Notes: generated by a model from the letters alone, not told the origin. A DNA stretch of 64,000 nucleotides from an uncultured Gemmatimonadota bacterium (GCA_903893785.1 CAITNQ010000424.1:7666-71665); one strand, 5' to 3'. Shown: positions 19-23,932, numbered from the stretch's first letter. Program-made: numbers and translations.

Positions 19-2421
19 CTAGAAAATCAGCACCGACACCGACTTCTGGATCAGGGCAATGGAGATTGAGGCCATACCCATCAGCGCCATGCCGCAGGCA
101 AACCCCACCGCCAGGACCGGCGCATAGAGACGCCACTGCTTGGCGCCGTATTTGCGGAAGAAGTAGTAACGGGCCAGGAGCGCGCCGATGACCTCGGTGA
201 TGACCCAGTGCGGGATGCCGGTCAGCGCCCGGACAAAACCGAACACCAACAGCACCGGCAGGCCCAGCACCGACAACAGAGCATAGCTGCCGATGCCGAA
301 AACAGCCCCGGCGACGATGACCTTCTTCTTGATGGCGCGGAAGAGCCACGGCTCATCGGTGGATCGCTGGATCCACGGGCTGGTGAAATTCGGGTCCGTG
401 TCCAGCACAAAATAGTAGGTCCATCCCGGCGGCAGCGCCTCGCTGCCCGCCACCCGCAGGCGCGGTCGCGGCGCACGCATGACGCCGCCGTCCACGGGCG
501 GCTCAATGACCCGCAGCGCAGGTCCGTCGGCGGCGCTCCCACTGTCCGAACGGGCGACGGCCGCCACGGGTTCGGCCATGCGCTCCGGTTCGCCGGGGCT
601 GTAGTGGGTGTAGAAGCGCCCGGTGGGCGTCCACGGGCCGGCATGGCCGCGCTTGCCGCTGCTGCTGACCCACTCGCCATCGACCGCGCGAGCCCGCCAG
701 TACCACCACTCACGCTCGCTCAAGTTGGCCGGCTGCCACCCGGCCTCGCGCTGGTCGTCGGCGACCTGCAGCTCGCTGCGCAGGGTCCCGGTGAACCACA
801 GGCAGGTCTGATAGGCATTCAGCCGCCACATCAACTGGGCGTAGGGGTACGAGGCCGATGGCACCGGCGCCAGTTTCCAGATGTAGGACGAGTAGAGGAA
901 GCTGGCCACCAGCACGATCGGCACCATGGTCAACTCGGCCTTGACGATACTGGAGAAACGCGTGCCGGTCAGCTCGATCTCGCGGAATTTCTGCGTCTGC
1001 GCCCCGTAGTTGCCCAAGGGGAACGGGATGAACCAGATGTCGACGCCCTGGTACCCGGAAAGGATGATGGTCGCCTCGCGCACGTAGGGGATGGCGACGG
1101 TCTGCCCCACCAGGCCGACGAGGCGGGCGTTGACGAAGGACTGCAGCGGCGTGAAAACGAACCCGAAGAAGATGAAGAACCAGATGAACCGGCTGATCTC
1201 GGGCAGCAGCACCCAGGACACCAGAATGATCGCCAGGGTGCTCAGCGAGTAGAGCGCCACGGCGATCCAGATCGGGAAGTCGCCGCGGCCCGGCGGCGGT
1301 TGCCAGGTGCGCACCTGCACCAGCCCACCGACGCTAGTCTGGCTCTTGCGGAGGCTGTTGACGACCTGATAGATGCCGATAGCCGCGATGGCAATCGTGG
1401 TGCCGATGCCAAAGCTCATCCAGAAGTCGACGCTGTTGACGAAGAAGGTCTCGATCGTCCCCATGCCAGGCTGCCAGGTGGTCAGCAGCCCGTATTTATA
1501 CAGGAAGGGGTTGGCGATGGAACCGAGAACGACGCCGATGAAGGTGCCCATGACGCCCCAGAAGGGCATCACCAAACCGGAGAATATGGGCCCCAGATGG
1601 GCCGTGAAGCCCAGGGGCGTGGCCGGGATGAAGTTGCCCGTGACCTGCGTAAAGTCGATGAAGGGGATGGGGATCAACTGGATGGGCTCGTTCAGCAGCG
1701 CGCCGCTGATGGCTGGGATGGCCACGTACAGGGTGCCGAACACCAGACCGATCATGGCTCCTGCCGAGAACACCCGCCAGCGCCAGGTCTCCTCACCCGA
1801 GGTGCTCTCGGCCAGTGCGGTCGAACCCTGAGCCGCGACCGGCGCAAACGGGAACGGCAGACGCTCGTAGTCGGAGTTGAGACGGAAGAGAGCGTAGGCC
1901 ATGGTGTACCATGACACACGCGAGATGATCATGCCGACGACCAGCAGGATGATCGGCGCGACCCAGTCCGGATGCAGAAAGGTGCGCGCCGCCAGGGCCG
2001 GCGAGTCAGCGGGCGGGGCGAACCAGGTGGGCAGCAGCTTGGTCAGGCCAAATTGCTTGGCGGCCGGAGACTGCACCAGGTACTGGTTCCACAGCAGGCC
2101 GTTGAAGGCCCCGGTCTCAGCCGCGATGAGGCCGGAAGCCACATAGTAGAGGACGTAGATCTCCTGGCGCTTGAGCGTCGTGAACGACCGCTTGGTGATC
2201 TCGGCAAAGAGGATGATGGTCACCCACTCGGCCGCGGCGCCCAGCGACCCGCCCACCATCAACCCGAGGTACATATTGCCCGGGATCATGATGAAGGCGA
2301 CGAACAGGACGCCCAGCACCGTCTTGGTGGTGAACCCCTCCTCGTACTGGGTGGGGGTCTCGAGGAGATCGCGGTACTCGTCGATCTCCTGGTTCGGGTT
2401 CGACTTCGACCGTCCGAACAC
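19..2421 (-). CDS. OPT-like (oligopeptide transporter-related) polytopic membrane protein with an inserted soluble Fn3/Ig-like domain
   Basis: 800 aa; many hydrophobic segments; OPT-like N-terminus (EEGFTTKTVLGVLF...AAAEWVTIILFAE...QEIYVLY, ERLPFPFAPV); hydrophilic insert at about aa 545-695; GTG start with GGAGG RBS. Confidence 0.7.
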   Translation of the reverse strand: MFGRSKSNPNQEIDEYRDLLETPTQYEEGFTTKTVLGVLFVAFIMIPGNMYLGLMVGGSLGAAAEWVTIILFAEITKRSFTTLKRQEIYVLYYVASGLIAAETGAFNGLLWNQYLVQSPAAKQFGLTKLLPTWFAPPADSPALAARTFLHPDWVAPIILLVVGMIISRVSWYTMAYALFRLNSDYERLPFPFAPVAAQGSTALAESTSGEETWRWRVFSAGAMIGLVFGTLYVAIPAISGALLNEPIQLIPIPFIDFTQVTGNFIPATPLGFTAHLGPIFSGLVMPFWGVMGTFIGVVLGSIANPFLYKYGLLTTWQPGMGTIETFFVNSVDFWMSFGIGTTIAIAAIGIYQVVNSLRKSQTSVGGLVQVRTWQPPPGRGDFPIWIAVALYSLSTLAIILVSWVLLPEISRFIWFFIFFGFVFTPLQSFVNARLVGLVGQTVAIPYVREATIILSGYQGVDIWFIPFPLGNYGAQTQKFREIELTGTRFSSIVKAELTMVPIVLVASFLYSSYIWKLAPVPSASYPYAQLMWRLNAYQTCLWFTGTLRSELQVADDQREAGWQPANLSEREWWYWRARAVDGEWVSSSGKRGHAGPWTPTGRFYTHYSPGEPERMAEPVAAVARSDSGSAADGPALRVIEPPVDGGVMRAPRPRLRVAGSEALPPGWTYYFVLDTDPNFTSPWIQRSTDEPWLFRAIKKKVIVAGAVFGIGSYALLSVLGLPVLLVFGFVRALTGIPHWVITEVIGALLARYYFFRKYGAKQWRLYAPVLAVGFACGMALMGMASISIALIQKSVSVLIF

Positions 2422-2436
2422 GCGACGTCCCTCCCT

Positions 2437-5400
2437 TTACGCGGTGACGGCGCCGAGCGCGGCCGCCAGAATGTCTTCGCCCTGCTTGCGGTACCCTGCC
2501 TTGGCTTCGGCGTCAACCGTGCGCCAGATCAGGAACTGCTTGCGGATGACGTTCATGAAACGCTGGTTCACCCGCCGCCAGGAGGCTTCCTCACCGCTGA
2601 GGCGATGGATCTGCAGCCCGATGGCGAAGATGTTGTGCTCGGCCTCGGGCGTGGCTCGCAGTACTACGTGTTGGCTGACGCCCAGGTCGAACGGGGCCAG
2701 CCAGATATTCATGTCGATGGCATAGCCGTCGCCGTGCGGCGTCGGAAAGCGCTGCAAGTGGGCGCCATCGGTGTAGAAGGTGCCGATGGACTCTTCGCTG
2801 TACGAGTCGAAGTAACCGATCAGGAACACCGACAGCCCGACCACATCCTGGCCGCCTACCGTGAAGGGGAACTCGAAGTTCCATTGGTCGCCATCGGGCG
2901 GCGGCAGCTTCCACTTACGGGTAACGTCAGGCACGGCCATCTGCGACGCTTTGCGCGCCGGGTAGATGGTGGACAGCATGACCACCGCCATCACCAGCAT
3001 GCTGGAGAACACCGCGGACAGCGACGAATAGTTGAGCGTGAACCCGGCCAGCAGGTTCAGCTCAATCAGAACCTTGGCAATGATCTGCCCTGACAGGTAC
3101 CCAGCCACCACACCGAGCACTGAATAGACGCAGGACTCGGCAATGAAGAGCATGGCGATATGGCCCGGAGCCAGGCCCACGGACGAGTAGATGCCGATCT
3201 CACGGAATCGTTCGTACACGCTGCCCATCATGGTATTGAGCACGATCAAGGCCGCGATGATAATGGGGATCAGCAGGTTGGCGATGCCCGAGAACGAAGT
3301 CATGCCCAGCGAGCTGTAGATTGACACCCGGACGAACTGGTCTCCAGGCTCCTTGATGCCGGCGAACAGCGTGACGGCCAACCGCGACAGGAACTCCTCG
3401 ATCTGTTTGCGCTCATCGATGCCGGCGTGGAAGCGTACCGCCACTGACTGCAGCGGGTTGCCGCTGCCGACGTTGCGCAGGGTGGCGTAGGGCACGAGAA
3501 GGACATTGGCGGGCTCGAGGTGGACAAAGGGCTTGATCACCACCTTGGTGTCTTCCAGCCCCTGCTTCTCGCGCGATTCCTCCTCCGCCATTTCCTGCAC
3601 CGCCTGCCCCCCGGTAACCGCGAAGTCAGCCGGTGTCATGATCTCGTCGTCGAGGTCCTTGAGATCTTTCATGCGGCGCGAATCGAGCACGCCGATGACG
3701 GTGAACAGCTGGCCGAAAACGCGCACCTGGGCCGTACCCACCTCGGCCAGGTCAATGGCAAGCTTGTCGCTGGTAATCATGTCGCTGGGCAGGATGCAGA
3801 CTTTCTCGTCGCCCGGGGCGAACCAGCGCCCGGCCAGCAGAGCCCGATCCAGGCCCGTAACACCGCTCTCCTCCGGGCTCAGACCCAGGACGCCCAGGGC
3901 GTTATGGGTCTTGTCACCGTGCTTCATTTTGATATGCGCCTTGGCCCGGTTGTCGTACCACGAGCGGGGCGCCACCACGGCGATATCGCGGAAGGTGCTG
4001 CGGGCGTAGTCGAGGACGGACTCCTCGAGCGGGTTCCAGGCCTTGCTGCGGATCATCATGCCTTCGTACAAACCCTCGTTGTCGCGCTGAATCTGGTTGT
4101 AGCGCAGCGTGGTTTGCACCGAGGTGAAGGACAGCACCGTAAAGGTCAGCAGCAGCAGGGTGGCAAAGGTCAACCCGGTGCGCATCTTGCGCCGCTTCAT
4201 GTTGGAGATACCCAACTGGAAAGCCGCCATCGAAGCGCCCGCACGACTCACGTCCACATCGTGGATGACGGCCACCTCGGTGCGCAGTTTGCGCATCTGC
4301 TCGTTGAACCGGCCGGAGATGATCGACATCACCAGCACGGCCAGCACCAAGATGACAAAGGCCAGCAGGATGACGAAGGGGTTGGAGAGCTGGAAAGCCG
4401 GGTGCACCAGCCAGAGGATGATCCAGATGACCAGGAAGATGCCGGCAAAACCGAAGATCTGGTTCTTGATCGTAGCCGCCGTTATCAGCAGGCGTTCGGC
4501 GAAGAAAGCGCAGGGGATCACCAGCGCCATGAAGAAGATGATGCCTTGGATCACGTCGTTCTGGGTCGCCTTGACGTCCGGGTAGGCGCGGGACTCGAGA
4601 CCGATGGCCGAACGTGTGCGGCGCACGAACTCGGACCAGTGCCGCGCCGTCAGGGCCTCGGCGGCGGCGTCCAACTGGGCTTTGGCACGGCCGTGCAGGT
4701 CTGACAGCCGTTGGTTCTCAATGCCGAAGCCCTGCAGTTCGCGCATGCGCGACTCGTCCAGCGTCCACATGTCATGCGCAGCCAGGTAGGTAGTGCGCAG
4801 GAATGAGGTCCCGCTGCCGATCTCGAAACCAGAACCCAGGGCCGCCTCTTTGCTGCTGGCATCACGCGCATTGAGCAGCAGGTAGCGGAACCCCAGCAGG
4901 CCGGCGCCCAGCCCCACCTTCACGCGGGCCTCGGGTCGGGCAAACAGCACGCCCACCGGTTCATCACGGGCCGACGGGCCTTCGCCAATGGTGTAGCCGA
5001 ATTCCACGGGCGTGCTGTTGGTCTCGTCGAAGACCGTGATCTGGGACAACTTGGTCAGGTACCGCGGATCCACGATGTCGAAGAAGTTGTAGGCTACGCA
5101 CGGGAACAGCACGACCATCCACTGCTTGTCGCGCCAGTCCATGGCAATACGCATGGGGTAAACCTTGTCCCCCTGCACACCGCGGTCAGGCGCGTAGGCA
5201 ATGCTGCCGTTGAGCGGATCGAGGTAGTAGCCCTCGACCTGGACCTGGTTGACGCGAATCGAGTTGAGGTAGAAGGTACCGCGGTCGTCGGTCAGCTCGA
5301 AGTATTCGCCGCGCACGCCCTTGTACGATTTGGCGCGACCGTTGCGCACCACCCCGATGGCACCGGCGCGCGGCAGATCCGGGATGATGCTACGGCGCGG

Positions 5401-7194
5401 GAAGACCATCGTGCGGGCCTGCAGCGAGCGGAGCGTATCGCGCAGGCGCATCTTGAAGTCCGGGAACAGCTCAGGGTCGTCAAAGGCCTGGTGGAGCATA
5501 CCGGCCAGGGCGCGCACTTGGCGCGTCAGGTTGGCGCTGTTGGTGTGGGCGACGCGATCGAGGGGCGTATCGACGAGGAAACGCGCATCGTTGACCGTGA
5601 CAAAGGCCAGGGCCGGTGTGCCGGTGTCGAGCACCACCTCGCTGTTCACCGAGATCTGGCCAGGGACAAAGGTCTCCCAACTCATGCCGCCTTCGGGGCT
5701 GATGCCGTTGACCAGCACATCGCGGTAGTCGTACCCCAGGGCCCGGCTCAGACGCCGGGCATAGGCCATGAAGTTCTTGCCGAAGGGCGCGAAGTAGCGC
5801 TTGTAGTAGAAGCTGCTGTTGCTGTTCCAGACCCCCAACTCGTCGGTCTGGGTGGACAGGTCCAAACTGATGAAGAGCTTTACGTCCAGCGAGTCGGCGT
5901 GCCCCCGCGCCCACTCGCGGTACAACTCGGCGCGGCGGTTGGTGTTGTGGCGCACTTCCTGCCACAGGACCGCCTCATCGGCGTAGCGCTCCTGGCCCAG
6001 GCGCAACTGGCCCTGGTCGCGAACCACCACCCCCTCGGCCATGGCTGCGGTCAGCACCTGGCGCACCAGCACCGAGTCCGGGCCATCGATGCCGTGCACC
6101 AGGGCTTCTTTGCCCATGTACTCGTCGCCGCCGACCCGATAGATGACCCCGTCGCGGGCGATCATGCCGCGGTCCAGGGCCAGTTCCACCGCCCGGCGCA
6201 CCACCATGCGCTGGACGAAAGGGTCTTCTTTGCGCAGGTAGCGTTGAATGAAGTCGTCGATCCCCCGCAGTCCCAGATGGTGGGCCGAGGTGGCCAGGAA
6301 AACCACGGTGCGCGTCGGCGGATGGGCGCGGAAATAGCGGCCGAGTTCCAGCAGCGCGGTGATGCTGGCGGCCTGCTCGGCCCCCGGCGTAAGCGCCGGC
6401 ACCACCGACATGGCGTCGTAGTAGGCTTCGAGCACAACGATGTCTTTGGCCAGGACCGGATCGCTGCCCGGGATCACCCCCATGATGTTCCGCGCCGGTC
6501 GGCGCTCCCAGTCCATGCGCGACTGCAGGTGGACCGGCAGGGAGCCGCCGTTGGTGGCCACCTGCTCACGCAGGTGCTCGCCATCCTGGCGGTTGACCCA
6601 GAAGCGCGGCAGATCCAGCGGCATGGTCAGGAACTTGCGTTCGGCCTCCAGGTACACGGTCGAGTCCGGTTCGACAAACACGACCGCTGCCGCCCCCAGG
6701 TAGGCGCTGTTCAGCCAACTGTCGCCGGTGTTGAAGTCCAGCAGGACGGTCGCGCCCTGCACGTCCTGGCCGTCGAGTCGGGCATAGTCACCATCGCCGC
6801 CGTCGATCAGGCGCGAGGTCAGGCCCGCCGGCGGCAGGGTGGAGGTGCGCACCAGATTCGGCCACAGGGCACACAGGGGCACTCGCGCCCCAGTGGCAGT
6901 GACCTCCAGGAAACCGCCACGGTCCATGGGCACGGTGACGTCGTAGTCCTGCGTCACCACATCGCGCAGACCGGTCTGGCGGAACGCCGACTCGACAAAC
7001 GCAGCCGCGCTGTCGGCTCCGGGGTAGCCGGCAACGCGCGAGCCCAAACCGCCGAAGAAGGCCAGGCTGGCAGCCACCCGCTCCTCAGGCACGGCTTGGG
7101 ACAGGGCACCGAAGTCGACTTCGGCACCGGCCGGGCGAACCCACGCGCCGGCCAACAGGCATGCCAGCAGCGTCAAGCAACGAAGCCCCTGCAT
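2437..7194 (-). CDS. Large fusion protein: signal peptide, PA/M28-peptidase-like domain (degenerate), helical linker, TM helices, MacB/FtsX-like permease, C-terminal soluble domain
   Basis: Start reassigned to ATG 7194 (MQGLRCLTLLACLLAG..., signal peptide, GGGAGA RBS). M28-like motifs SRVAGYPG and NIMGVIPG...VVLEAYYD. FtsX signatures 'GISNMKRRKMRTGLT' and 'NTMMGSVYERFREIGIYSSVGL'. Confidence 0.8.
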   Translation of the reverse strand: MQGLRCLTLLACLLAGAWVRPAGAEVDFGALSQAVPEERVAASLAFFGGLGSRVAGYPGADSAAAFVESAFRQTGLRDVVTQDYDVTVPMDRGGFLEVTATGARVPLCALWPNLVRTSTLPPAGLTSRLIDGGDGDYARLDGQDVQGATVLLDFNTGDSWLNSAYLGAAAVVFVEPDSTVYLEAERKFLTMPLDLPRFWVNRQDGEHLREQVATNGGSLPVHLQSRMDWERRPARNIMGVIPGSDPVLAKDIVVLEAYYDAMSVVPALTPGAEQAASITALLELGRYFRAHPPTRTVVFLATSAHHLGLRGIDDFIQRYLRKEDPFVQRMVVRRAVELALDRGMIARDGVIYRVGGDEYMGKEALVHGIDGPDSVLVRQVLTAAMAEGVVVRDQGQLRLGQERYADEAVLWQEVRHNTNRRAELYREWARGHADSLDVKLFISLDLSTQTDELGVWNSNSSFYYKRYFAPFGKNFMAYARRLSRALGYDYRDVLVNGISPEGGMSWETFVPGQISVNSEVVLDTGTPALAFVTVNDARFLVDTPLDRVAHTNSANLTRQVRALAGMLHQAFDDPELFPDFKMRLRDTLRSLQARTMVFPRRSIIPDLPRAGAIGVVRNGRAKSYKGVRGEYFELTDDRGTFYLNSIRVNQVQVEGYYLDPLNGSIAYAPDRGVQGDKVYPMRIAMDWRDKQWMVVLFPCVAYNFFDIVDPRYLTKLSQITVFDETNSTPVEFGYTIGEGPSARDEPVGVLFARPEARVKVGLGAGLLGFRYLLLNARDASSKEAALGSGFEIGSGTSFLRTTYLAAHDMWTLDESRMRELQGFGIENQRLSDLHGRAKAQLDAAAEALTARHWSEFVRRTRSAIGLESRAYPDVKATQNDVIQGIIFFMALVIPCAFFAERLLITAATIKNQIFGFAGIFLVIWIILWLVHPAFQLSNPFVILLAFVILVLAVLVMSIISGRFNEQMRKLRTEVAVIHDVDVSRAGASMAAFQLGISNMKRRKMRTGLTFATLLLLTFTVLSFTSVQTTLRYNQIQRDNEGLYEGMMIRSKAWNPLEESVLDYARSTFRDIAVVAPRSWYDNRAKAHIKMKHGDKTHNALGVLGLSPEESGVTGLDRALLAGRWFAPGDEKVCILPSDMITSDKLAIDLAEVGTAQVRVFGQLFTVIGVLDSRRMKDLKDLDDEIMTPADFAVTGGQAVQEMAEEESREKQGLEDTKVVIKPFVHLEPANVLLVPYATLRNVGSGNPLQSVAVRFHAGIDERKQIEEFLSRLAVTLFAGIKEPGDQFVRVSIYSSLGMTSFSGIANLLIPIIIAALIVLNTMMGSVYERFREIGIYSSVGLAPGHIAMLFIAESCVYSVLGVVAGYLSGQIIAKVLIELNLLAGFTLNYSSLSAVFSSMLVMAVVMLSTIYPARKASQMAVPDVTRKWKLPPPDGDQWNFEFPFTVGGQDVVGLSVFLIGYFDSYSEESIGTFYTDGAHLQRFPTPHGDGYAIDMNIWLAPFDLGVSQHVVLRATPEAEHNIFAIGLQIHRLSGEEASWRRVNQRFMNVIRKQFLIWRTVDAEAKAGYRKQGEDILAAALGAVTA

Positions 7195-7258
7195 GGTGCG
7201 TCTCCCCCCGTCCGTCCACGGACAGATCAGCAACCGGCCACGGTGACGGTCGACGCCG

Positions 7259-9229
7259 TCAGATCCAGAACACCACATTGTCGGTCATGCCCGTCAGGTA
7301 GTCGACCAACAGCCACAGGCCGGCGATCACGAACTGCCCCATGATCAGGCCCAGGAAGAAAGGCCGGCTCTGCCGATACAACGCCGGCCCGCCGTATTTC
7401 ATCACCACCTGCTTGACCAGCCAGGCAAGGAAAATGCTGAACCACAGCTCGTCCATGAGCCACACGGCGCTGATGGGGTACCCCACCGGATGCAGTGGCC
7501 ACCACAGCAGGTGGTGCCGCGCCAGCATGAGCAGGGCCATGATGGCCCCCCCCACCACCGTGTGCAGCCAGCCGTCGCCGTAGACGGGCAGTGGGGTGGT
7601 CAACCCGGCGGCAATGTATTGGAAAGGCACCTGATTGCCGCCGGCGAAGAACCAACCGTTGAGGTTGATGCCCCCGTAGGCGTACGCCAGGTTCAGGATG
7701 GCCCACACCGAGCCACCCAGACTAACGACGATGGCCAACAGCATGGCCCAGAACAATGGGCGCACGCGGTGCCCCAACTGCTCGGTGAGTTTGAGGCCGT
7801 GGGCGCAGGCCGCCATGACGAAGGTGCGCATGTCCGCCGCCCAGACATAAGAGTATGCCATGGATACCATGCCGGGCGTGCCCAGGACTGACGAGCCGAC
7901 CGCGGAAACCACGGCCGAAGACGCGATCATCGGTCCCACGGCCGTGGCCACGCCACTCTCGACCACCACCCGCGTGAGCCCGACGAAGATCAGCACGGCC
8001 AGCAACAGTGTGATGGCGGCAGCCCACCACGGCAGGCCGGTGACCCAGAGCCAACCGGTCAGCACCAGGGACGACCCCAGCCACGCGAACACGGCAGCCC
8101 GGTACGACAGCATCTCGCCGGTGTCGTCCACGTTGGGGTCGCCACGGAAGGCCTTGCGGAACACATCACGCAGGTGACTGCGGCCGACCCACAGGCCGAA
8201 CAGGACCAGGACCATCAGTGCGCCCTGCCCCTGATGAGCCAAGATCGGCTCGGAGAAGGCACCGTACACGCCCAGCTTCTCCGTGCTGCCGACGCCCAGC
8301 AACGCCAGCGCGCCTTTGACCAGCTTGGCGACCACATTGAAGAACCAGAGACTGAAGGCGATATCGAGATTGATCAGATAGGAGAAGCCGACCATGGGGA
8401 AACTGAGGCGGAAGATGAGTCCCATGGTGTTGCGGAAAATCGGCACCGAGGACACGGTGGTGATGGCCGGCACGAAGTTGAAGTAGGCATGCAGCGCGTT
8501 GACACTGCTGACCACGACCGGGACGGCAAAGCCAATCCACAGCAACGGGCGACGGAACAGCGGCCGCACGGCGTGGCCGTCCTCCTGAACCATTTCCAGC
8601 GGCACCTGGACAATGGGGTAGATCAGCCGTTCGCGCTCCACCCACTGCCGGCGTAGAATGACCATCGAGGAGATCATCATCAGGTACAACGCCGCGGCCA
8701 GCACCAACCAGCAGGCCAACGGGCCGGCCCAAACGGCCCACGGGATGCCCATGCCGCGCGGGGCGCCCTCGTAAAACCACTTGATGGCTTCCTGGTCCTG
8801 CGGCACCAGCCAGGCCGGCACAAAGGGCAGGATGAGCTCGGCCCACTCGTTCTCCGGCGTGGCGTAGTATTGGGCGCCGGTGGTAATGGTCAACAGGTAC
8901 TCAGAGAAGCCCATGGTCGGGATGGCGGCGGCCACGACCATCATCACGTAGATGACGATCAGCTCGGTGCGCCGCAGCGCCCGACGCGGGGCGACGGCGG
9001 CAACGGCGGTGTTGGCTACGGCCACGAGGACAAAGAAGAGGAACAGGGCCCCGGCAGCGCTGAAGTCGTTGCCCATGTACGAGCCCCGGATCACCATGTT
9101 GGCGTAGGGGTCGCCCACGGCGATGGCCAGGGACAGGAGCGCCCCCAATACAAAAGCCCGGGCGCTGAACCCGGTACCCAGGGCACTCCCTGCTCCGGCA
9201 GGGCGCGGCTCGTTCTTCTGGACGTCCAT
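7259..9229 (-). CDS. DUF6785/DUF6784-like polytopic membrane protein (OPT-related)
   Basis: 656 aa; FSARAFVLG, ELIVIYVMM, LRRQWVERERLIYPI, WWPLHPVGY and 'VMKYGGPALYRQSRPFFLGLIMG' are typical of this family. Confidence 0.75.
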   Translation of the reverse strand: MDVQKNEPRPAGAGSALGTGFSARAFVLGALLSLAIAVGDPYANMVIRGSYMGNDFSAAGALFLFFVLVAVANTAVAAVAPRRALRRTELIVIYVMMVVAAAIPTMGFSEYLLTITTGAQYYATPENEWAELILPFVPAWLVPQDQEAIKWFYEGAPRGMGIPWAVWAGPLACWLVLAAALYLMMISSMVILRRQWVERERLIYPIVQVPLEMVQEDGHAVRPLFRRPLLWIGFAVPVVVSSVNALHAYFNFVPAITTVSSVPIFRNTMGLIFRLSFPMVGFSYLINLDIAFSLWFFNVVAKLVKGALALLGVGSTEKLGVYGAFSEPILAHQGQGALMVLVLFGLWVGRSHLRDVFRKAFRGDPNVDDTGEMLSYRAAVFAWLGSSLVLTGWLWVTGLPWWAAAITLLLAVLIFVGLTRVVVESGVATAVGPMIASSAVVSAVGSSVLGTPGMVSMAYSYVWAADMRTFVMAACAHGLKLTEQLGHRVRPLFWAMLLAIVVSLGGSVWAILNLAYAYGGINLNGWFFAGGNQVPFQYIAAGLTTPLPVYGDGWLHTVVGGAIMALLMLARHHLLWWPLHPVGYPISAVWLMDELWFSIFLAWLVKQVVMKYGGPALYRQSRPFFLGLIMGQFVIAGLWLLVDYLTGMTDNVVFWI

Positions 9230-9483: not shown

Positions 9484-9984
9484 TCAGGCGCCGACGAGGC
9501 GGTCCAGACTCCAGCGTGCCACCAGGCCGATGAACACGCCGCTGACCAGCCCGGCCACCAGGCCCATGGGCAACAGGGACAGCAACGCGGGTTGGCCGGT
9601 GTACAGCCGGGCAACCCACAACTGCGTGGCTTGGTGGGCCACGGCGCCGGCGACGCTCACGCCCACGGTGCTGAACAACCCGGGACGCAGCCGATGCGCG
9701 CTGGCCATGGCTGCCAGGCTGGCCATTGCCGCAGCCCCGCCAATGATCGCCACGGGACCGAGCAGGCCGCCGCCGAACAGGCTACCGAGCAGCACCTTGA
9801 CCCCGGCTACCAGTACCGCCGCGCGCACGCCCTGCCCCATCAGCGCCACCAGCACCGGGATGTTCGCCAGTCCGAGCCGCAGCCACGGTAGCGGCGTCGG
9901 CACCGTGTTCTCGACCAGCGACAGCACCAGGGCCGTGCTGCTGAGCAGTCCGAGGCGAGCCAGGTCGCGCGTTGACGTGAACAT
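9484..9984 (-). CDS. Gx transporter family / heptaprenyl diphosphate synthase component I-like (EetB-like) membrane protein
   Basis: LVLSLVENTVPTPLPWLRLGLANI and GVSVAGAVAHQATQL motifs; about 5 TM; coupled to the upstream NusG-II gene. Confidence 0.8.
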   Translation of the reverse strand: MFTSTRDLARLGLLSSTALVLSLVENTVPTPLPWLRLGLANIPVLVALMGQGVRAAVLVAGVKVLLGSLFGGGLLGPVAIIGGAAAMASLAAMASAHRLRPGLFSTVGVSVAGAVAHQATQLWVARLYTGQPALLSLLPMGLVAGLVSGVFIGLVARWSLDRLVGA

Positions 9985-10409
9985 CAGCGACTGACGGCGT
10001 CAGGGCCGCCCGCTGGTGCGGGTCCGGCGATGACCACCACGACGCGGTTGGGCAGGCAGGCCACCACCTCGCCGGCGTGGCTTACCCAACCTTGGCGGAC
10101 ACAGGCTTGGTTGGCGCAGGGGGAGGTCAGCACCCGGGCGCCCTGAGGCCCCACCTGAACCTGGGTGACGCCCAGGGGGCCGGCTGCGGGCACGATGCGC
10201 GCCTCGGACAGCGGCAATGCCAGGTGCTCCCGCCCTTCGACCCGCACCGTGGCCGCGGGAGGGGGCGCCAACGGCCGCCACCAGAGCCCCAGGGACGTCG
10301 CCAGCACGAGCGCCATCAACCCCCAGTCGGCCCTGGTCAGGCGGTGTTCCAGGGCTGCCAGGCGGGGCCCCGCTGGCGGCGTCAACAGCCATCCTCGGCC
10401 GCGCGGCAC
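9984..10409 (-). CDS. NusG domain II-containing (EetA/Lin0431-like) membrane-anchored protein
   Basis: N-terminal TM, then 'SPCANQACVRQGWV...ACLPNRVVV' and C-terminal 'DAVSR'; start codon uncertain. Confidence 0.8.
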   Translation of the reverse strand: MPRGRGWLLTPPAGPRLAALEHRLTRADWGLMALVLATSLGLWWRPLAPPPAATVRVEGREHLALPLSEARIVPAAGPLGVTQVQVGPQGARVLTSPCANQACVRQGWVSHAGEVVACLPNRVVVVIAGPAPAGGPDAVSR

Positions 10410-11398: not shown

Positions 11399-11455
11399 CC
11401 AACGATTGCGGCCGGCGGCGGCCACGAGGCCGTCGAAGACGACTCTTCTGCTGTG

Positions 11456-11506
11456 GACCACCAGGGATCTGGCGTCGACGCCAGGTCCCTGGTGGTCTTT
11501 ATTTTT
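11456..11506 (+). terminator. Intrinsic terminator after the rpsU-hypothetical pair
   Basis: Near-perfect 42-bp inverted repeat GACCACCAGGGATCTGGCGTC/GACGCCAGGTCCCTGGTGGTC followed by TTTATTTTT. Confidence 0.7.
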
Positions 11507-11532
11507 GATCCAGCGTGCCCCGTGGGTATATT
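11505..11532 (+). promoter_or_regulatory. Candidate sigma70 promoter for rel
   Basis: TTGATC, 16 bp spacer, TATATT, about 65 bp before the ATG at 11597. Confidence 0.45.
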
Positions 11533-11596
11533 GGGGCAGCCCGTGCCCGGCCGCCGGCCATCGGCTACCCATTCCGGGAGACAGGCGAGATCCCCG

Positions 11597-13831
11597 ATGA
11601 CTGATACCCCGCTGCCGGCCCCGTCACCGGCACAACCCGCAGTGCAGCACCAGAGTCTCAATGCCGCCCTGGAACTGGCAGGAGACCAACTGCGGCTGCA
11701 GATGCTGCTGATCGAGGTAGCCGCCTCAGACGACCAGGCGGATCTGGACCTGATCGTCCGGGCGTACCAGTTCGCCCGCGCTCAGCACGAGGGCCAGGTC
11801 CGCAAATCAGGGCAGCCCTTCCTGACCCACTGCGTCGAGGTGGCCCGTTTGCTGACGCAGATGCGCATGGACGAGGCCACGATCGCGGCCGGTCTGCTGC
11901 ACGATGTCATCGAGGACACAGACACAACCCCGGCAGAGTTGACACGGCTGTTCGGCAAGACGATCACCTCGCTCATCGACGGGGTGACCAAGATCGACCG
12001 CCTGAGCTTCGAGAGCCGCGAAGCGCGCCAGGCGGAGACGTACCGCAAGATGCTGCTGTCGATGGTCCGCGACATCCGCGTCATACTCATCAAGCTGGTG
12101 GACCGGCTGCACAACATGCGCACGCTGGAGTTCGTCGATGGCGAGGCCCAGCAGCGCATCGCCCGCGAAACGCTCGAAGTGTACGCACCGCTGGCGCACC
12201 GCTTCGGCCTGGCCCGGATACGCTGGGAGTTGGAGGACCGCAGCCTGAAGTTCAGCGATCCCGAAGCGTACCGCGCGATCCGGGAAAAAGTGGCCATGAC
12301 CCGGCAGCAGCGGGAGCAGTATATCGAGGAGTTCAAAGAACCCATCGAGCAGGCGCTGGCGGACAACGGCATCGAGGCCGAGATCACCGGGCGGCCGAAA
12401 AACTTCTACAGCATCTACACCAAGATACAGGCCCGCGGCAAACCCTTCGAGGACATCTTCGACCTGCTGGCCATCCGCATCATTACCGGCAGTGTGCGCG
12501 ATTGTTATCACACGCTGGGACTGGTGCACAGCATCTACCGACCGCTGCCTGAACGGATCAAGGACTATATCTGTACCCCGAAGAGCAACATGTACCAGTC
12601 GCTGCACACCTCGGTGGTAGGCCCCAAAGGCAGGCCGGTGGAGGTGCAGATCCGCACCTGGGACATGCACCATACGGCCGAGATTGGCATTGCCGCCCAC
12701 TGGCGTTACAAGCTGGGCCTGGGCGCGGCTGGCGACTTGGACTCCCACTTTGCCTGGCTGCGCAAGGTCCTCGAATGGCAGCAGGAGGCCACCGACCCGG
12801 CCGAGTTCATGGCCAACCTCAAGATCGAGCTGTTCCAGGACGAGATCTTCGTGTTCACGCCCAAGGGCGATCTGCATCAGTTGCCCAAAGGGGCTACGCC
12901 GATCGATTTCGCCTTTGCGGTGCACACCAACGTCGGCCTGCACTGCCTGACGGCCAAGGTCGACGGGCAGGTGGTACCGCTCGGCCACGCGCTCAGCAGC
13001 GGCGATACGGTCCAGATCGTCACCTCGCCGCACCAGAAGCCCAGTCAGAGCTGGCTGGAGCTGGTCAAGACCACCAAGGCGCGCCAGCGGATCCGCCGCT
13101 GGCTAAAGGACGAGAGCCACACCCAGAGTGTCCGCCTCGGCGAGGAGATCCTGGAGCGCGAGTTCCGCCGCTACCGGGGCGTCGTGCCCAGCGAAAGCCT
13201 GGAGCACGTGGCCGCCGAGTTCGGCTTTACTGACCTGGAGACGCTGCACGCGGCCCTGGGCAGCGGCGATCTGTCAGTTGGCCGCGTGCTGGGCCGGATG
13301 TTCCCCAACCGGCCGCGGCCCCGCGCCCCGATGCCGATGCGCGACCGCCGCGGCATCCGCATTCAGGGCCTGACGAATCTGATGATCACCTTCGCGCGTT
13401 GCTGCAGCCCGATTCCGGGCGACCCGATTCTGGGCCTGATCACGCGCGGCCGCGGCATCACCGTGCACCGCACCGATTGCCCCAATCTGCACGACCTGGC
13501 TGCCGACCCGGAGCGCCTGCTGCCGGTGGAGTGGGACGTCCCCGACGAACGGGCCTTCACCGTGCAGCTGCGGTCGCGCAGCCACGACCGCAAGTACCTG
13601 CTGTCCGACATCACCAAGGCCATCAGCGACACCGGCTCCAACATCCGCCGGTCGGCCACTCGCGCCGTGGACGGCTTGGCCGAGCAGAGCTTCTGGATCG
13701 ATGTTCGCGATGTGCGGCAGGTGGCCACGATCCTGCAGCGAGTCTCCCAGGTCGAAGGCGTGATCGAGGTGCGCCGGGTGGACGACGAGATCGCCGCGGA
13801 CGCGGGCGGGGCCGACGGGGCTGCAGCCTAG
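11597..13831 (+). CDS. rel: Bifunctional (p)ppGpp synthetase/hydrolase (long RSH, Rel/SpoT)
   Basis: HD hydrolase 'GLLHDVIEDT' and 'KLVDRLHNMRTL'; synthetase 'RIKDYICTPKSNMYQSLHT' (RxKD type); TGS 'IFVFTPKG...DFAFAVHT'; 'ARCCSPIPGD'; C-terminal ACT; start moved to ATG 11597. Confidence 0.95.
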   Translation: MTDTPLPAPSPAQPAVQHQSLNAALELAGDQLRLQMLLIEVAASDDQADLDLIVRAYQFARAQHEGQVRKSGQPFLTHCVEVARLLTQMRMDEATIAAGLLHDVIEDTDTTPAELTRLFGKTITSLIDGVTKIDRLSFESREARQAETYRKMLLSMVRDIRVILIKLVDRLHNMRTLEFVDGEAQQRIARETLEVYAPLAHRFGLARIRWELEDRSLKFSDPEAYRAIREKVAMTRQQREQYIEEFKEPIEQALADNGIEAEITGRPKNFYSIYTKIQARGKPFEDIFDLLAIRIITGSVRDCYHTLGLVHSIYRPLPERIKDYICTPKSNMYQSLHTSVVGPKGRPVEVQIRTWDMHHTAEIGIAAHWRYKLGLGAAGDLDSHFAWLRKVLEWQQEATDPAEFMANLKIELFQDEIFVFTPKGDLHQLPKGATPIDFAFAVHTNVGLHCLTAKVDGQVVPLGHALSSGDTVQIVTSPHQKPSQSWLELVKTTKARQRIRRWLKDESHTQSVRLGEEILEREFRRYRGVVPSESLEHVAAEFGFTDLETLHAALGSGDLSVGRVLGRMFPNRPRPRAPMPMRDRRGIRIQGLTNLMITFARCCSPIPGDPILGLITRGRGITVHRTDCPNLHDLAADPERLLPVEWDVPDERAFTVQLRSRSHDRKYLLSDITKAISDTGSNIRRSATRAVDGLAEQSFWIDVRDVRQVATILQRVSQVEGVIEVRRVDDEIAADAGGADGAAA

Positions 13832-13887
13832 GCGCAGCCACCCCGGCCGGCCAACCCCCTCGGCCCGGGCCACACTGGGCGCCCGCG

Positions 13888-14166
13888 TCAGTCGTCGACT
13901 GGGGGCGTGGCCAAGGCTGCCTCCAGCTTGGCGCTGATGTCACGCTCCTCGGGTGTGCGAATCCGTCCCCCGAAACCGGCCGCCGAGGCGTCGTCGATCC
14001 AGTCCTGGACCATCTGCACCTGCAGCCGGGTGAGACAAAGGGGCGTACCGTCGGCCAGCGCCTGGCGCAGACGGCGGCACAGGCGTTCTTCGTCGGGCCA
14101 GAGGCGCTGACCTCGACCTGCTAGCAGGTACTCGACTTCGCGCCGGGTCAGCGGTACCCGCACCAC
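13888..14166 (-). CDS. Small hypothetical protein (~92 aa)
   Basis: GTG start with GAAGGGG RBS; MVRVPLTRREVEYLL...; fills the gap between rel and hisC. Confidence 0.55.
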   Translation of the reverse strand: MVRVPLTRREVEYLLAGRGQRLWPDEERLCRRLRQALADGTPLCLTRLQVQMVQDWIDDASAAGFGGRIRTPEERDISAKLEAALATPPVDD

Positions 14167-14178
14167 GGTCCCCCTTCG

Positions 14179-14207
14179 TTGACAGGCCAGGGGCGGCCGG
14201 CTATATT
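14179..14207 (+). promoter_or_regulatory. sigma70 promoter for hisC
   Basis: TTGACA (14179-14184), 17 bp spacer, TATATT (14202-14207). Confidence 0.75.
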
Positions 14208-14268
14208 GCCCGGCCCGCGCCCGTCGGCGCCCCCCCTCCCCCCGCAGGGCCACGCGATCGTGTCGAAC

Positions 14269-15333
14269 ATGAGCCTTCCTCCGGTACACCTCTTCCGTCC
14301 TGCGATCGCCGCCATGCAGGCGTACGTCCCCGGCGAACAGCCCACCGGCGGCACGTACCTCAAGCTGAACACCAACGAGAACCCCTACCCACCTCCGCCC
14401 GCCTTACTGGACCGGGTTCGCGACGCCTGTTCGGCTGAGTTGCGCCTGTATCCGGACCCGGAGGCCAGAGCCGTGCGGCAGCGGATGGCGGCCCTTTTCG
14501 GGGTGCGTCCGGAGCAGACCATGGTCGGCAATGGGTCCGACGAGCTGCTGGGCATTCTCATGCGCTCTTTCGTTGACCCTGACGACGTGGTGGCGTACGC
14601 GCACCCGACCTACAGCTATTACCAGCAACTCGTGCAGACCCAAGGCGGGCGATCAGTGCGGGTGGACTATCCCGACGACTACGCCCTGCCCGAGGACGAA
14701 CTGGTGGCGGCCAACGCCAAGCTGACGTTGCTGGTGAACCCCAATGCCCCCTCGGGGACACTGCTGGCGCAGGACCGCGTCGCCGCCCTGGCCCGTCGGG
14801 TGCGGGGCCTGCTGGTAGTCGATGAAGCATACGTAGACTTTGCCGACGGCGGCGCCATCCCGCTGCTGGCCGACGCCGCCAACCTGGTGGTGGTGCGCAC
14901 CATGTCCAAATCGTACTCGCTGGCCGGCATGCGCCTGGGCATGGCCTTCGCGCACGCGGACCTGATGACCGGCATGGCGAAGGTCAAAGACCACTACAAC
15001 GTCAACCGACTGAGCCTGCTGGCCGCTGAAGCCGCACTCGATCACATCGACGACATGCGCCGCAACGCCACCCGCATCGTGGCCACCCGCACGTGGTTGA
15101 CAGCTCAGCTGCGGCACCTGGGGTTCTTCGTCTGGGACTCGGCGGCGAATTTCGTTCTGTGCCGCCGGTCCGAGCCGAGCGCCCAGGCCATCTACGCGGC
15201 CCTCAAGGAGCGCCGCATCCTGGTCCGCCACTTCGCCACCCCGCGTCTGCAGGACTGCCTGCGCATCACGGTCGGCACGGATGAACAGGCCGCCGCGGTG
15301 GTCGCTGCCCTGGCTGACATCGTCCGCGCGTGA
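14269..15333 (+). CDS. hisC: Histidinol-phosphate aminotransferase
   Basis: YVPGEQP, KLNTNENPYPP, GNGSDE, NPNAPSG, DEAYVDF, RTMSKSYSLAGMRLG (PLP Lys), LRITVGT. Confidence 0.93.
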   Translation: MSLPPVHLFRPAIAAMQAYVPGEQPTGGTYLKLNTNENPYPPPPALLDRVRDACSAELRLYPDPEARAVRQRMAALFGVRPEQTMVGNGSDELLGILMRSFVDPDDVVAYAHPTYSYYQQLVQTQGGRSVRVDYPDDYALPEDELVAANAKLTLLVNPNAPSGTLLAQDRVAALARRVRGLLVVDEAYVDFADGGAIPLLADAANLVVVRTMSKSYSLAGMRLGMAFAHADLMTGMAKVKDHYNVNRLSLLAAEAALDHIDDMRRNATRIVATRTWLTAQLRHLGFFVWDSAANFVLCRRSEPSAQAIYAALKERRILVRHFATPRLQDCLRITVGTDEQAAAVVAALADIVRA

Positions 15334-15381
15334 GCGGCACCCGGTTCAGCACGGCGCGCGGGCTCGCCGCCGTTGACAGGT

Positions 15382-15876
15382 TCAGCGCTGCTGGTACTTG
15401 AGCATGCGCGCCATCAGTTCCACTTCGGCCACGCCCAAACGCACCCGGCGAGCCACCTCCGCGGCGTCCTGGCCCTGCGCCAGCAACTCCCAGGCCCGAT
15501 CGTAGCGATTGCCGCCGTTGTCGCCGCGGTCAGGGGTCGCCGCGGCGGCGGCGGGCGAGGCGTCCGCCCGCTTTGCCGGGCCCGGGCGCGCGCCCGGGCG
15601 GTGGTCGCTGTCGACGGCTTCCGGACGCGGCGATACGGCCCGCGGTGCCTCCTCCCCCGGGGTCACCCAACGCGCCTCTACCAGGGCGCACAGCCGTTCC
15701 AGGCGACCGGAAAGGCGGCCCAACTCCTGGCGCTGCACGGTCAATTCCTGCAGTGCCTGGTCCAGCCCCCTCTGCTGACATCGCACCCAGTTGCGGAACC
15801 AAAAGGTCAACCCCAGGGCGAGGAGCAGGAACGCCGCATCCACCAGGGCCAGACCCAACGTGTCTTCGCTCATCAT
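15382..15876 (-). CDS. Membrane-anchored flagellar-operon protein with a C-terminal HTH-like end (DUF2802/DUF6115-like)
   Basis: N-terminal TM, coiled coil, C-terminal 'YDRAWELLAQGQDAAEVARRVRLGVAEVELM'; overlaps the kinase stop codon. Confidence 0.65.
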   Translation of the reverse strand: MMSEDTLGLALVDAAFLLLALGLTFWFRNWVRCQQRGLDQALQELTVQRQELGRLSGRLERLCALVEARWVTPGEEAPRAVSPRPEAVDSDHRPGARPGPAKRADASPAAAAATPDRGDNGGNRYDRAWELLAQGQDAAEVARRVRLGVAEVELMARMLKYQQR

Positions 15877-17333: not shown

Positions 17334-17412
17334 CGTTGCCCCCGGCCACGGCCCAGTACGGTCGCCGTGCGGAACCCGCCGCCCGATGCCTGCACGGCGC
17401 CTGCAGGCCCGG

Positions 17413-18498: not shown

Positions 18499-18499
18499 G

Positions 18500-18811: not shown

Positions 18812-18858
18812 CGGACTCGCCCCTGGCAGCGCCCGGGCGGCGGCATGGCGCCCGCCGG

Positions 18859-19644: not shown

Positions 19645-19681
19645 CACGGTATCCGCTTGCGGTGCAGGAGAGCCCGTCATA

Positions 19682-20497: not shown

Positions 20498-20501
20498 GTG
20501 G

Positions 20502-23886: not shown

Positions 23887-23932
23887 CCCTGCTTAGCCCA
23901 TGCCCGTCGGCAGCATGGGCGATGGCACTGGT

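Follow-up and report, generated by a model that had tools for sequence, protein, structure and literature searches.

Three co-oriented membrane-protein genes

The window, that is the whole stretch of DNA analysed, is 64,000 nt long, and begins with three genes on one strand, here called A, B and C:

7259..9229, minus strand: gene A, a DUF6785/DUF6784 polytopic membrane protein of 656 aa (ORF, Pfam)
2437..7278, minus strand: gene B, a giant fusion of a PA/M28-like head with MacB_PCD and FtsX domains (ORF, Pfam)
19..2421, minus strand: gene C, a predicted divergent OPT-fold permease of 800 aa (ORF, AF2/Foldseek)

The packed arrangement described in a first-pass annotation of this DNA was recovered exactly, ORF by ORF: the end of A and the longest B ORF share 20 nt, and 15 nt separate the B stop from the C start. 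B is 1613 aa long from its first ATG and 1585 aa, the length given in the first-pass annotation, from the second (residue 29, nt 7194), the probable start. No indels appear where contigs from independent public runs span the two junctions, A-B and B-C, and 35 of the 40 strain differences listed for B, out of 83, are synonymous; this shows that the genes are no product of assembly and evolve under purifying selection. Annotation of the neighbouring genes revealed no ATPase adjoining A, B or C in the window, in keeping with the first-pass annotation. The host was taken as a freshwater Latescibacterota bacterium, and phylum-wide counts refer to that phylum.

B joins a peptidase-fold head to a MacB/FtsX-type permease

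The following parts were distinguished in B:

7123..7194, minus strand: residues 29-52, putative signal-peptide-like hydrophobic N-terminus, MQGLRCLTLLACLLAGAWVRPAGA (translation)
4564..7122, minus strand: residues 53-905, extracytoplasmic head (AF2, Foldseek)
4294..4563, minus strand: residues ~906-995, three extra predicted TM helices joining the head to the FtsX module (hydrophobic stretches)
2938..4221, minus strand: residues ~1020-1447, MacB-type half transporter with TM1, periplasmic core domain and TM2-4 (Pfam, 5lil)
2440..2937, minus strand: residues 1448-1613, C-terminal domain of no known family (invariant columns)

Pfam placed three domains in B, namely Peptidase_M28 (31.1 bits, cut-off 21.3), MacB_PCD at residues 1047-1220, between TM1 and TM2 (32.5 bits, cut-off 27), and FtsX (PF02687) at residues 1337-1447, covering TM2-TM4 (51.9 bits, cut-off 25.5). 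Sequence matches in the PDB were to YwaD and MacB, the latter (5lil) with an E of 5.8e-12 when a profile was used. Among the named NCBIfam equivalogs MacB, LolC/E, FtsX and ADOP, none was above cut-off, the best being MacB with 38.3 bits against 966. Orthologues of B start near residues 29-52, a segment whose composition suggests a signal peptide.

In the AF2 model of the head (pLDDT 93.0, pTM 0.91), a PA + M28 aminopeptidase fold with an insert of ~110 aa is accompanied by a beta-rich domain and a three-helix bundle. Foldseek returned 2ek8 (E 2.4e-21), BSAP/YwaD (6hc6, 5.7e-21), TfR1 (1e-17) and GCPII (7e-16); fold and domain order, with PA inserted within M28, are like those of the PA-M28 aminopeptidases (6hc6, 2ek8, PaAP). 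The co-catalytic zinc ligands of M28 enzymes are His, Asp, Glu, Asp and His, plus a catalytic Glu. In the B head, the canonical ligands were absent at all three positions that could be aligned, the last two ligands not being alignable by sequence. In alignments with YwaD and the Vibrio aminopeptidase, Tyr286 (Ser in B') stands in place of the His ligand and Gln302, a variable position (D/A/N), in place of the bridging Asp, while the Glu-Glu pair has become His333, which is invariant, and His334, which is variable. With these canonical metal ligands missing, the head more likely serves for binding than for catalysis, and is probably an inactive peptidase. TfR1 and nicalin have likewise not kept the catalytic metal site. 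The B head differs from all these proteins by its fusion to a membrane transporter, its additional beta-rich domain and helix bundle, and an invariant Asp288/His333 pair, which could form a remodelled yet active site.

The three extra hydrophobic stretches were kept in 42 sequences; their topology is a prediction. Strong conservation was also found in the C-terminal domain, with the motifs WLAPFDLGVSQ and RKQFLIWRT and invariant columns in sets of 7 and 42 sequences. This domain had no sequence match in the PDB and no match in the Atlas; it is presumably cytoplasmic because it is positioned after TM4.

C and A are probable OPT-superfamily permeases

C matched no Pfam family. When its AF2 model (pLDDT 81.6, pTM 0.81) was submitted to Foldseek, the only significant PDB folds were structures of barley Yellow Stripe 1, HvYS1 (7wst, E 5.8e-9, TM 0.64 on target; 7wsr, E 1.9e-8, TM 0.66), the following match having an E of 0.14. 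The OPT model PF03169 matched neither A nor C, nor anything in the whole host genome. It did match C homologues at ~30% identity, such as P0196 (64.2 bits): among 15 homologues tested, 8 reached E <= 0.1 and 5 were above cut-off. The C family, which amounts to 973 representative clusters, is like the OPT/Yellow-Stripe-like transporters (PF03169, HvYS1) in predicted fold and in having members that reach the OPT model; A and C themselves stay below PF03169, and C differs further by an insert:

352..774, minus strand: residues ~550-690 of C, low-confidence insert of ~140 aa between helices (AF2)

In this insert, pLDDT falls below 50 at residues 561-663 and 667-688. Some homologues carry a domain at the same site, PDZ in P0124 and a Reg_prop repeat in P0126.

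A matched the DUF6785 (PF20581, 431.5 bits) and DUF6784 (PF20580, 113.1 bits) models, in that order, and is one of 9 DUF6785 matches in the host genome. Plain BLASTP of A against C gave no significant match (best E 0.087). When a profile of 53 C-family proteins was compared with a profile of 8 DUF6785 proteins, hhalign yielded a probability of 98.2% and an E of 3.9e-14 over 562 columns, pairing ERLPFPF with ERLIYPI and FRKYGAKQ with MKYGGPAL. At the profile level, then, the motifs common to A and C reflect true homology and not chance; judging from its model, C is an OPT-fold protein remotely homologous to A. A is a predicted OPT-superfamily permease, its fold being assigned through the hhalign link to C, and is an optional first gene of the cluster. 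The earlier proposal that A and C are OPT-related paralogues is thus upheld. Of the heterodimer also proposed, the paralogy stands but an obligate pairing is not supported, since 10 Latescibacterota-type genome loci do without A, as do 28 of 49 metagenome loci. DUF6785 copies adjacent to B did not group in a single clade in a quick tree. Stand-alone DUF6785 paralogues of the host adjoin M20 peptidase and aminotransferase genes, and others adjoin oxidoreductases.

Linkage of B and C across genomes

Metagenome loci were counted if they had at least 600 nt downstream of B; they are 40-84% identical to B. In 49 of 56 such loci the next gene after B was C, and in 44 of 48 evaluable genome loci C was adjacent to B, with one more at 6.4 kb; as the loci are mutually related, these counts overstate independence. 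In five of the seven metagenome exceptions, a DUF6785 gene was located upstream instead. B and C form the conserved core, to which A is often, though not always, added. The three families are functionally linked across genomes, as the first-pass annotation had it, but around a B-C core and not as an A-B-C unit.

Could A, B and C be independent membrane proteins, adjacent by shared descent in one lineage? One phylum supplies most of the loci and keeps a wider synteny there (RelA, NusG_II, Hpre_diP_synt_I, flagellin). Each family is also found alone: C-family and DUF6785 genes occur by themselves, and in two Armatimonadota loci B has no OPT gene nearby and is flanked by phosphodiesterase-like and ceramidase-like genes. 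However, B-C adjacency holds at 40-50% identity and in Armatimonadota with different surroundings, and the four B paralogues of the host each abut an OPT-superfamily gene of their own (4/4) in differing contexts. The same members also recur in varying order, the small FtsX permease and ATPase described below being found on either side of B-C. We consider the absence of a joint function very improbable indeed.

Four further components

It had been suggested that the operon may run leftwards, where an ATPase was to be sought. It does go on left of the window, with D (about 335 aa, belonging to no known family) and the PqqD-like E, and then stops; the ATPase, G, was found apart, on contig C491 of the host, next to a small FtsX permease, F. 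E matches PF05402 with 48 bits (cut-off 23.4), and PqqD-family NCBIfam models below their cut-offs. G is the host's best match to the Armatimonadota cluster ATPase (62% identity), and F its best FtsX match; G scored highest against the LolD, MacB and DarD models, reaching no equivalog cut-off. Where B has its periplasmic core domain, F has a loop of just 20-60 aa. The host has a single F-G pair.

In Armatimonadota locus L052 the order is B-C-D-(PqqD fused to FtsX)-ATPase, the PqqD part forming the N-terminus of the small permease, and in another Armatimonadota locus it is small FtsX-ATPase-B-C. B-C-D-PqqD-small FtsX-ATPase are contiguous in three other families of the host's phylum (L169-L171). 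In all, the ATPase is contiguous with B-C in L052, L091, L130, L151 and L169-L171, and D-PqqD-small FtsX-ATPase are contiguous in 6 of 14 loci. D was present in 18 and E in 15 of 62 loci, many B-C loci having neither. A small FtsX gene was found in 27 of 32 B-positive genomes, as against 0 of 9 B-negative ones; the five B-positive genomes without it are only 60-89% complete.

Type VII permeases work with two FtsX-type units per complex; B itself has one, and its gene linkage suggests a B+F heterodimer. Folding of B(1015-1613) with F gave an ipSAE of 0.32 (runs 0.33, 0.32 and 0.31; best control 0.00), graded as weak support. In the calibration, 116 of 157 solved complexes and 2 of 215 mismatched pairs attained the mark used, but values up to 0.60 were given by just 18 of the 157 solved complexes plus both passing mismatches; these figures apply roughly here, as our own alignments were used. 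The runs had at least 75% of contacts in common, with a partner pLDDT of 65-66. The score could reflect likeness to solved MacB/LolCE dimers.

With E comes the question of direction. In an export or envelope-assembly system, the PqqD-like protein, with D, would recognise a cytoplasmic peptide or peptide-linked molecule, the OPT-fold protein would move it across the inner membrane, and the MacB-type module and head would extract, trim or pass it outward, as in MacAB-TolC, LolCDE or YbbAP-TesA. OPT proteins are known as importers, which speaks against such a role, and several paralogous B/OPT sets per genome resemble substrate-specific uptake sets more. PqqD-type domains are, from NCBIfam names, peptide chaperones of RiPP pathways, and the fusion seen in L052, at the cytoplasmic N-terminus of the small permease, would suit cytoplasmic peptide recognition for export at least as well as uptake. 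Yet the fixed partners of E are D and the small FtsX permease, unlike those of PqqD/RiPP recognition elements: no precursor-peptide gene and no radical-SAM or other RiPP modifying enzyme was annotated among the neighbours at the host locus, L052 and L091, and no MacA-like adaptor or outer-membrane duct in the annotated loci. Many B-C loci, moreover, do without D and E. B relatives are near-universal in the host's phylum (138 of 151 genomes), as expected of a housekeeping envelope function, and according to a published account, characterised type VII ABC systems all act outward, on the periplasmic or membrane side (PMC12646458). On balance we regard export as unlikely.

A regulator of the FtsEX kind was also considered, in which a non-transporting motor would switch the head, or a protein bound to it, and thereby govern the turnover of cell wall or surface proteins, with released peptides being recycled by the OPT-fold permeases. 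The literature offers FtsEX-EnvC/PcsB/RipC and YbbAP-TesA as examples of a type VII motor coupled to a hydrolase or a dead hydrolase-like activator (among others PMC12646458), and the B head has a hydrolase fold whose site is degenerate. A gene for an S41 C-terminal processing peptidase precedes F-G in the host and lies ~1 kb upstream of F-G in G012, but it is outside the contiguous operons of L169-L171. The conserved cluster includes no cell-wall enzyme gene, and four paralogous sets in one genome are unlike a division function. We regard this proposal as quite improbable.

Discussion

A type VII ABC core and an OPT-fold permease very probably form one conserved functional system. A, B and C belong to a bigger machine, conserved widely and so far unstudied, that couples an ATP-driven MacB/FtsX-type motor, with its giant and probably inactive aminopeptidase-like outer head, to OPT-fold permeases. 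We moderately favour the reading in which A to G make up a mechanotransmission complex of this type, capturing peptide-like substrates and feeding OPT-fold importers. Of the seven components of this envelope machine, A, B and C would come first, with B as large subunit of a MacB/LolCDE/FtsEX-type ABC complex, partnered by F, which lacks a periplasmic domain, and by the LolD/MacB-type ATPase G. D and E, the latter with a PqqD-like peptide-binding fold, would be two cytoplasmic proteins, and C (with B as a rule) and A (often) OPT-fold secondary permeases. The periplasmic head of B, its canonical zinc site lost, would bind a peptide-like substrate; ATP hydrolysis by G would, via the F/B membrane pair, move the head and the MacB-type periplasmic core; the OPT-fold permease or permeases would then receive the substrate and carry it across the inner membrane, D and E acting as adaptor or sensor on the cytoplasmic side. 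The host's four B paralogues may all be driven by a single F-G motor.

Members of the OPT family (TC 2.A.67) are known as proton-coupled importers, taking up oligopeptides or metal chelates. Together with the M20 peptidase and aminotransferase neighbours of stand-alone DUF6785 genes and the PDZ inserts in C homologues, this analogy favours uptake of peptide-like nutrients, a plausible but tentative assignment. Counting against uptake, those MacB-type systems that have been characterised work in the outward direction or inside the envelope.

Several known systems share parts of this design. A type VII system with an SGNH hydrolase partner also has a MacB/FtsX-type permease, a LolD-like ATPase and a hydrolase-fold periplasmic partner, with mechanotransmission presumed. 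Here, in contrast, hydrolase-fold part and permease are one fused protein, the fold is PA/M28 and lacks canonical metal ligands, the permease pair would be asymmetric (giant B, minimal F), and the system further includes OPT-fold permeases, D and a PqqD-like protein. B shares its FtsX domain and MacB periplasmic core domain with LolCDE, MacAB-TolC and FtsEX-EnvC, and the proposed B/F pair would be heteromeric as LolC/LolE is; unlike these systems, B adds three TM helices, a head of ~850 aa and a conserved C-terminal domain, and no LolA-like, EnvC-like, adaptor or outer-membrane duct partner was found in the loci. We know of no OPT protein working with an ABC motor, and literature searches gave none. 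Nor did they give a characterised system joining a type VII ABC permease, a peptidase-fold head and OPT-fold carriers, in agreement with the first-pass annotation. That annotation had proposed a novel peptide or polymer import or processing complex; no paper describing the combination was found in these searches, while import or processing is kept here as a conditional reading.

A bolder and doubtful extension would be a hybrid transporter class, in which one motor (small FtsX and ATPase) serves several interchangeable giant receptors, each with its own OPT-fold permease. An ATP-driven dead-peptidase head would load proton-driven carriers, amounting to ATP-gated, receptor-dependent secondary uptake, and the PqqD-like domain would sense the imported peptide inside.

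Results

Gene content of the window

Three ORFs lie close together on the minus strand between positions 19 and 9229 of the window (G000:C424:7666-71665):

7259-9229, minus strand: gene A, ORF of 656 aa, DUF6785/DUF6784 protein
2437-7278, minus strand: gene B, ORF of 1613 aa counted from the first ATG, fusion of a PA/M28-like head with MacB_PCD and FtsX
19-2421, minus strand: gene C, ORF of 800 aa, OPT-fold protein

The first-pass annotation had placed all three exactly, and its size of about 1585 aa for B corresponds to a start at the ATG at residue 29, just after which a signal-peptide-like stretch is found. There is a 20-nt overlap between A and the longest B frame, and a 15-nt gap between B and C. 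Both junctions (A-B and B-C) are spanned without indels by contigs from independent public lake or freshwater runs. For B, 35 of 40 listed strain differences are synonymous, and 43 more exist beyond these. Among the public runs listed as carrying these sequences, none was an RNA run. A promoter and terminator scan gave no signal above shuffled sequences. A weak terminator-like hairpin is seen ahead of A (9407-9387, minus strand), between A and the NusG_II-domain and Hpre_diP_synt_I genes (9484-10409, minus strand). These two genes were considered as members of the system and rejected, being syntenic within Latescibacterota-type loci only and not among the annotated Armatimonadota neighbours.

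The genes at 11453-25778 are unrelated to the finding: RelA/SpoT (11453-13831, plus strand), an aminotransferase, a GAF histidine kinase (15873-17843, minus strand), an HDOD protein, a sigma-28-type factor and flagellar export genes (FlhF-like, FlhA, FlhB, FliR). The histidine kinase ORF, also of 656 aa, had been a candidate second DUF6785 gene, and was rejected on this assignment.

B carries a peptidase-shaped head on a MacB-type unit

Pfam recognises Peptidase_M28 (residues 264-349), MacB_PCD (1047-1220) and FtsX (1337-1447) in B, and the NCBIfam matches are to MacB/Lol/FtsX only, all sub-threshold. With sequence profiles, residues 31-353 resemble the PA-M28 aminopeptidases YwaD/BSAP and 2ek8 (E about 1e-14) and, more weakly, transferrin receptor 1 and nicalin; the C-terminal part resembles MacB (E 5.8e-12). 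AF2 modelling of residues 30-905 from 42 sequences gave a confident structure (pLDDT 93.0, pTM 0.91), which matches PDB folds of PA-M28 aminopeptidases (E 2e-21 to 1e-18), TfR1 (1e-17) and GCPII (7e-16). As read from the translation, B continues past the head with three hydrophobic helices and a short loop, then the MacB-type unit (TM1, periplasmic core, TM2-4), and ends in a C-terminal domain of 166 residues. The latter is among the best-conserved regions of B, and no likeness to it was found in the Atlas or, by sequence, in the PDB.

The positions which we take from the literature to be M28 ligands were read from alignments to YwaD and the Vibrio aminopeptidase. B has Tyr or Ser at the first His ligand, Gln, Asp, Ala or Asn at the bridging Asp, and an invariant His333 plus a variable residue at the Glu-Glu pair; Asp288 is invariant. 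Given these substitutions, the canonical di-zinc site is not retained at the three alignable ligand positions, the last two ligands being unplaced. The head of B is thus probably non-catalytic, albeit peptidase-shaped.

A and C belong to the OPT superfamily

A consists of DUF6785 and DUF6784 in Pfam. C matched no Pfam family, and neither A nor C had an NCBIfam match. Comparison of A and C by BLASTP gave no significance, and their homology becomes visible through profiles: the C-family and DUF6785-protein profiles align end to end over 562 columns (probability 98.2%, E 3.9e-14), with both motif pairs that the first-pass annotation had proposed as common to A and C in register. A and C are therefore remote paralogues inside the OPT superfamily. 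The PF03169 (OPT) model is reached by neither protein, nor matched anywhere in the source genome, a member of the Latescibacterota. Among 15 scanned C homologues, 8 matched it at E ≤ 0.1, five of them passing the cut-off. The AF2 model of C (53-sequence alignment; pLDDT 81.6, pTM 0.81) had barley Yellow Stripe 1 as its sole PDB match (E 5.8e-9 and 1.9e-8; next best 0.14).

An exhaustive search with C returned 973 representative clusters. The model of C contains a low-confidence insert at residues ~550-690, a site occupied in C-family homologues by a PDZ domain (P0124, residues 753-789) or a Reg_prop repeat (P0126, residues 605-627). One Armatimonadota C-family gene stands alone (L092:3131-11339, on G001:C87), with an FAD_oxidored gene after it and a bacterial alpha-2-macroglobulin gene adjoining.

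In a quick DUF6785 tree (27 rows including one C outgroup, with three stand-alone copies only), B-adjacent copies are spread over several clades and intermingled with stand-alone paralogues of the source genome. The idea of A as a single old dedicated partner lineage was dropped for this reason.

An OPT-superfamily gene accompanies B across genomes

Neighbourhoods of B were surveyed, in line with a proposal of the first-pass annotation, and B and C do co-occur across genomes and metagenomes. We collected 51 genome loci with B (48 Latescibacterota-type and 3 Armatimonadota), 48 of them with sequence downstream of B. C adjoins B in 44 of these 48, and is absent from two Armatimonadota loci. In metagenomes, a scan with the B alignment gave at least 600 relatives, and 62 loci at 40-84% identity were retained; in 49 of the 56 having at least 600 nt downstream of B, C comes immediately after it. 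Of the seven exceptions, five carry a DUF6785 gene upstream of B instead. The position of A is more variable: over 49 metagenome loci it is the immediate upstream neighbour in the same orientation in 17, diverges in 4 and is lacking in 28, and it is missing from 10 Latescibacterota-type genome loci whose upstream neighbour is present.

Four B-family genes occur in the source genome, every one of them next to a gene of the OPT superfamily; two of the three further paralogues are cut by contig ends.

B-family genes of the source genome (G000)
C424: the B gene of the window, C beside it
G000:C7:32487-39063 (L065:5539-12067): B paralogue, DUF6785 gene directly beside it
G000:C320:402-5696: B paralogue, C-type gene directly beside it
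G000:C187:20362-24809: B paralogue, DUF6785 gene directly beside it

These loci are related to one another, and the adjacency counts cannot be read as independent trials. The link between B and an OPT partner nevertheless survives changes in gene order, OPT subfamily and phylum.

Some loci depart from the common arrangement. There is 6.4 kb of extra DNA between B and C at L048:12794-19185, and 2 kb between C and the next gene, D, at L006:8337-10343; downstream of 12791 in L016 no C is found within 8 kb of B. These may be insertions splitting the operon. In several metagenome loci the DUF6785 gene upstream of B is a remnant or broken into 3-4 frames (L103:5062-6928, L104:4265-6132, L105:4959-6915, L106:2215-3982, L098:6400-6849), which may reflect decay of A or assembly errors; the broken form is seen in some marine loci. 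Armatimonadota B genes without an OPT neighbour (L050:5880-14701 and L051:3866-12523) are flanked by type I phosphodiesterase/AlkP-like and ceramidase-like genes, surroundings of another kind, which might point to a lipid or phosphoester substrate.

Two further genes lie left of the window

Continuation of the operon leftwards, possibly to an ATPase, had been suggested. Two genes, D and E, do follow on the same strand left of position 1, but no ATPase is found there, and after E comes a flagellin gene on the opposite strand. E is PqqD-like (48 bits).

G000:C424:6512-7582 (L001, left of the window), same strand as A-B-C: gene D, ORF of 356 aa (about 335 aa in the Atlas record, which starts at residue 22)

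D has no match in Pfam, NCBIfam or the PDB (the latter searched with an 11-sequence profile), and its Atlas neighbours are all hypothetical proteins. It is apparently duplicated internally, its start W..F.W.G..L.VP..W being present twice. His245, Cys283, Cys315 and His316, invariant or nearly so in 11 sequences, possibly form a metal site. A RiPP cluster was considered and rejected, as neither enzymes nor precursor were found among the annotated neighbours.

The probable motor is encoded on another contig

The three-gene system described at first pass holds in that A, B and C are linked, but the unit extends beyond the window, to D, E, a small FtsX permease (F) and a LolD/MacB-type ATPase (G). 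In the Armatimonadota locus L052 the order is B, C, D, a PqqD-FtsX fusion and a LolD/MacB-type ATPase. When the last two were searched against the source genome, one place stood out as best, contig C491, where F (241 aa, periplasmic loop almost nil) shares 42% identity with the FtsX half of the fusion and G, after it, 62% with the ATPase. Another Armatimonadota locus runs from small FtsX and ATPase (69% identity to that of C491) to B and C. Within the phylum, D, PqqD, small FtsX and ATPase are contiguous in 6 of 14 loci examined, and genomes of three other families carry the run from B through C, D, PqqD and small FtsX to the ATPase uninterrupted, two of these loci with a DUF6785 gene about 1 kb upstream. 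The small FtsX is present in 27 of 32 B-positive genomes (the five misses being 60-89% complete) and in 0 of 9 B-negative ones, all of one family; it is single-copy wherever present. From the gene orders, the best matches at C491 and this co-distribution, we take the C491 pair to be the motor of the B-C system, and the operon to have been split in the lineage of the source genome. The small-FtsX/ATPase pair, D and E occur once each in that genome, and a single pair for four B genes suggests a common motor.

Folding B residues 1015-1613 with the small FtsX gave weak support (ipSAE 0.32 versus 0.00 for the best control; partner pLDDT 65-66; at least 75% of contacts shared among runs), at a level, ipSAE ≤ 0.60, where passes comprised 18 of 157 solved complexes and both of the two mismatched pairs, among 215, that passed. 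This pass may reflect likeness to solved MacB/Lol dimers.

Directly upstream of F-G on C491 lies an S41 C-terminal processing peptidase gene with a PDZ domain (G000:C491:34504-36288; L082:5504-7288). The same arrangement, with a gap of about 1 kb, is seen in genome G012 (L172), and not in the contiguous operons.

Discussion

We class the B system as a type VII ABC system whose architecture and set of partners are without known precedent. Among characterised systems YbbAP-TesA comes nearest, then LolCDE, MacAB-TolC and FtsEX; all of them lack an OPT-fold partner, and likewise a fused PA/M28 head and a PqqD-like component. In the open papers searched, no description of a B-C-type system was found, nor anything on DUF6785/DUF6784 or on PqqD with FtsX. 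FtsX with OPT, M28 and Latescibacter returned irrelevant papers only, type VII ABC with oligopeptide transporter one irrelevant match, and the matches listed for the OPT family with MacB/FtsX did not link the two. The absence of a characterised system with this combination, claimed at first pass, is thus borne out in the literature searched. New here are the place of the split-off motor in the source genome, the contiguous seven-gene forms within the phylum, the co-distribution of B and small FtsX, and the inventory of four receptors and one motor.

Beyond the parts list and the genomic linkage, which are observed, the action of the system is what we infer. Mechanotransmission is presented, in PMC12646458, as the principle of type VII ABC systems, and by analogy a model of this type would be the most economical. 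The ATPase would power the B/F membrane pair, whose movement would be transmitted to the periplasmic core and peptidase-shaped head of B; the head would bind a peptide-like ligand, which the OPT-fold permease would take from it across the membrane.

Uptake is the job we favour, tentatively and a little short of an even chance, because OPT proteins are known as importers, stand-alone DUF6785 paralogues adjoin catabolic genes, there are several receptor/permease sets per genome, and C homologues carry PDZ inserts. The PqqD-like protein has its part in the main rival reading, according to which it would recognise a cytoplasmic peptide to be handled outward; we hold this to be rather unlikely. A regulatory role, as for FtsEX, comes next and seems improbable.

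Known type VII ABC jobs are a handful, namely efflux, lipoprotein release, cell-wall hydrolase control and lipid extraction, and OPT transporters are regarded as stand-alone carriers. Coupling of the two, if true, would be a new working mode for both families, and would give a role to two Pfam DUFs, to the orphan OPT-like family to which C belongs and to a PqqD-like protein outside RiPP synthesis. Nearly all Latescibacterota sampled carry the system (138 of 151 genomes); it occurs also in Armatimonadota, and its metagenomic relatives number in the hundreds. It may explain the uptake of peptide-like nutrients by these uncultured degraders.
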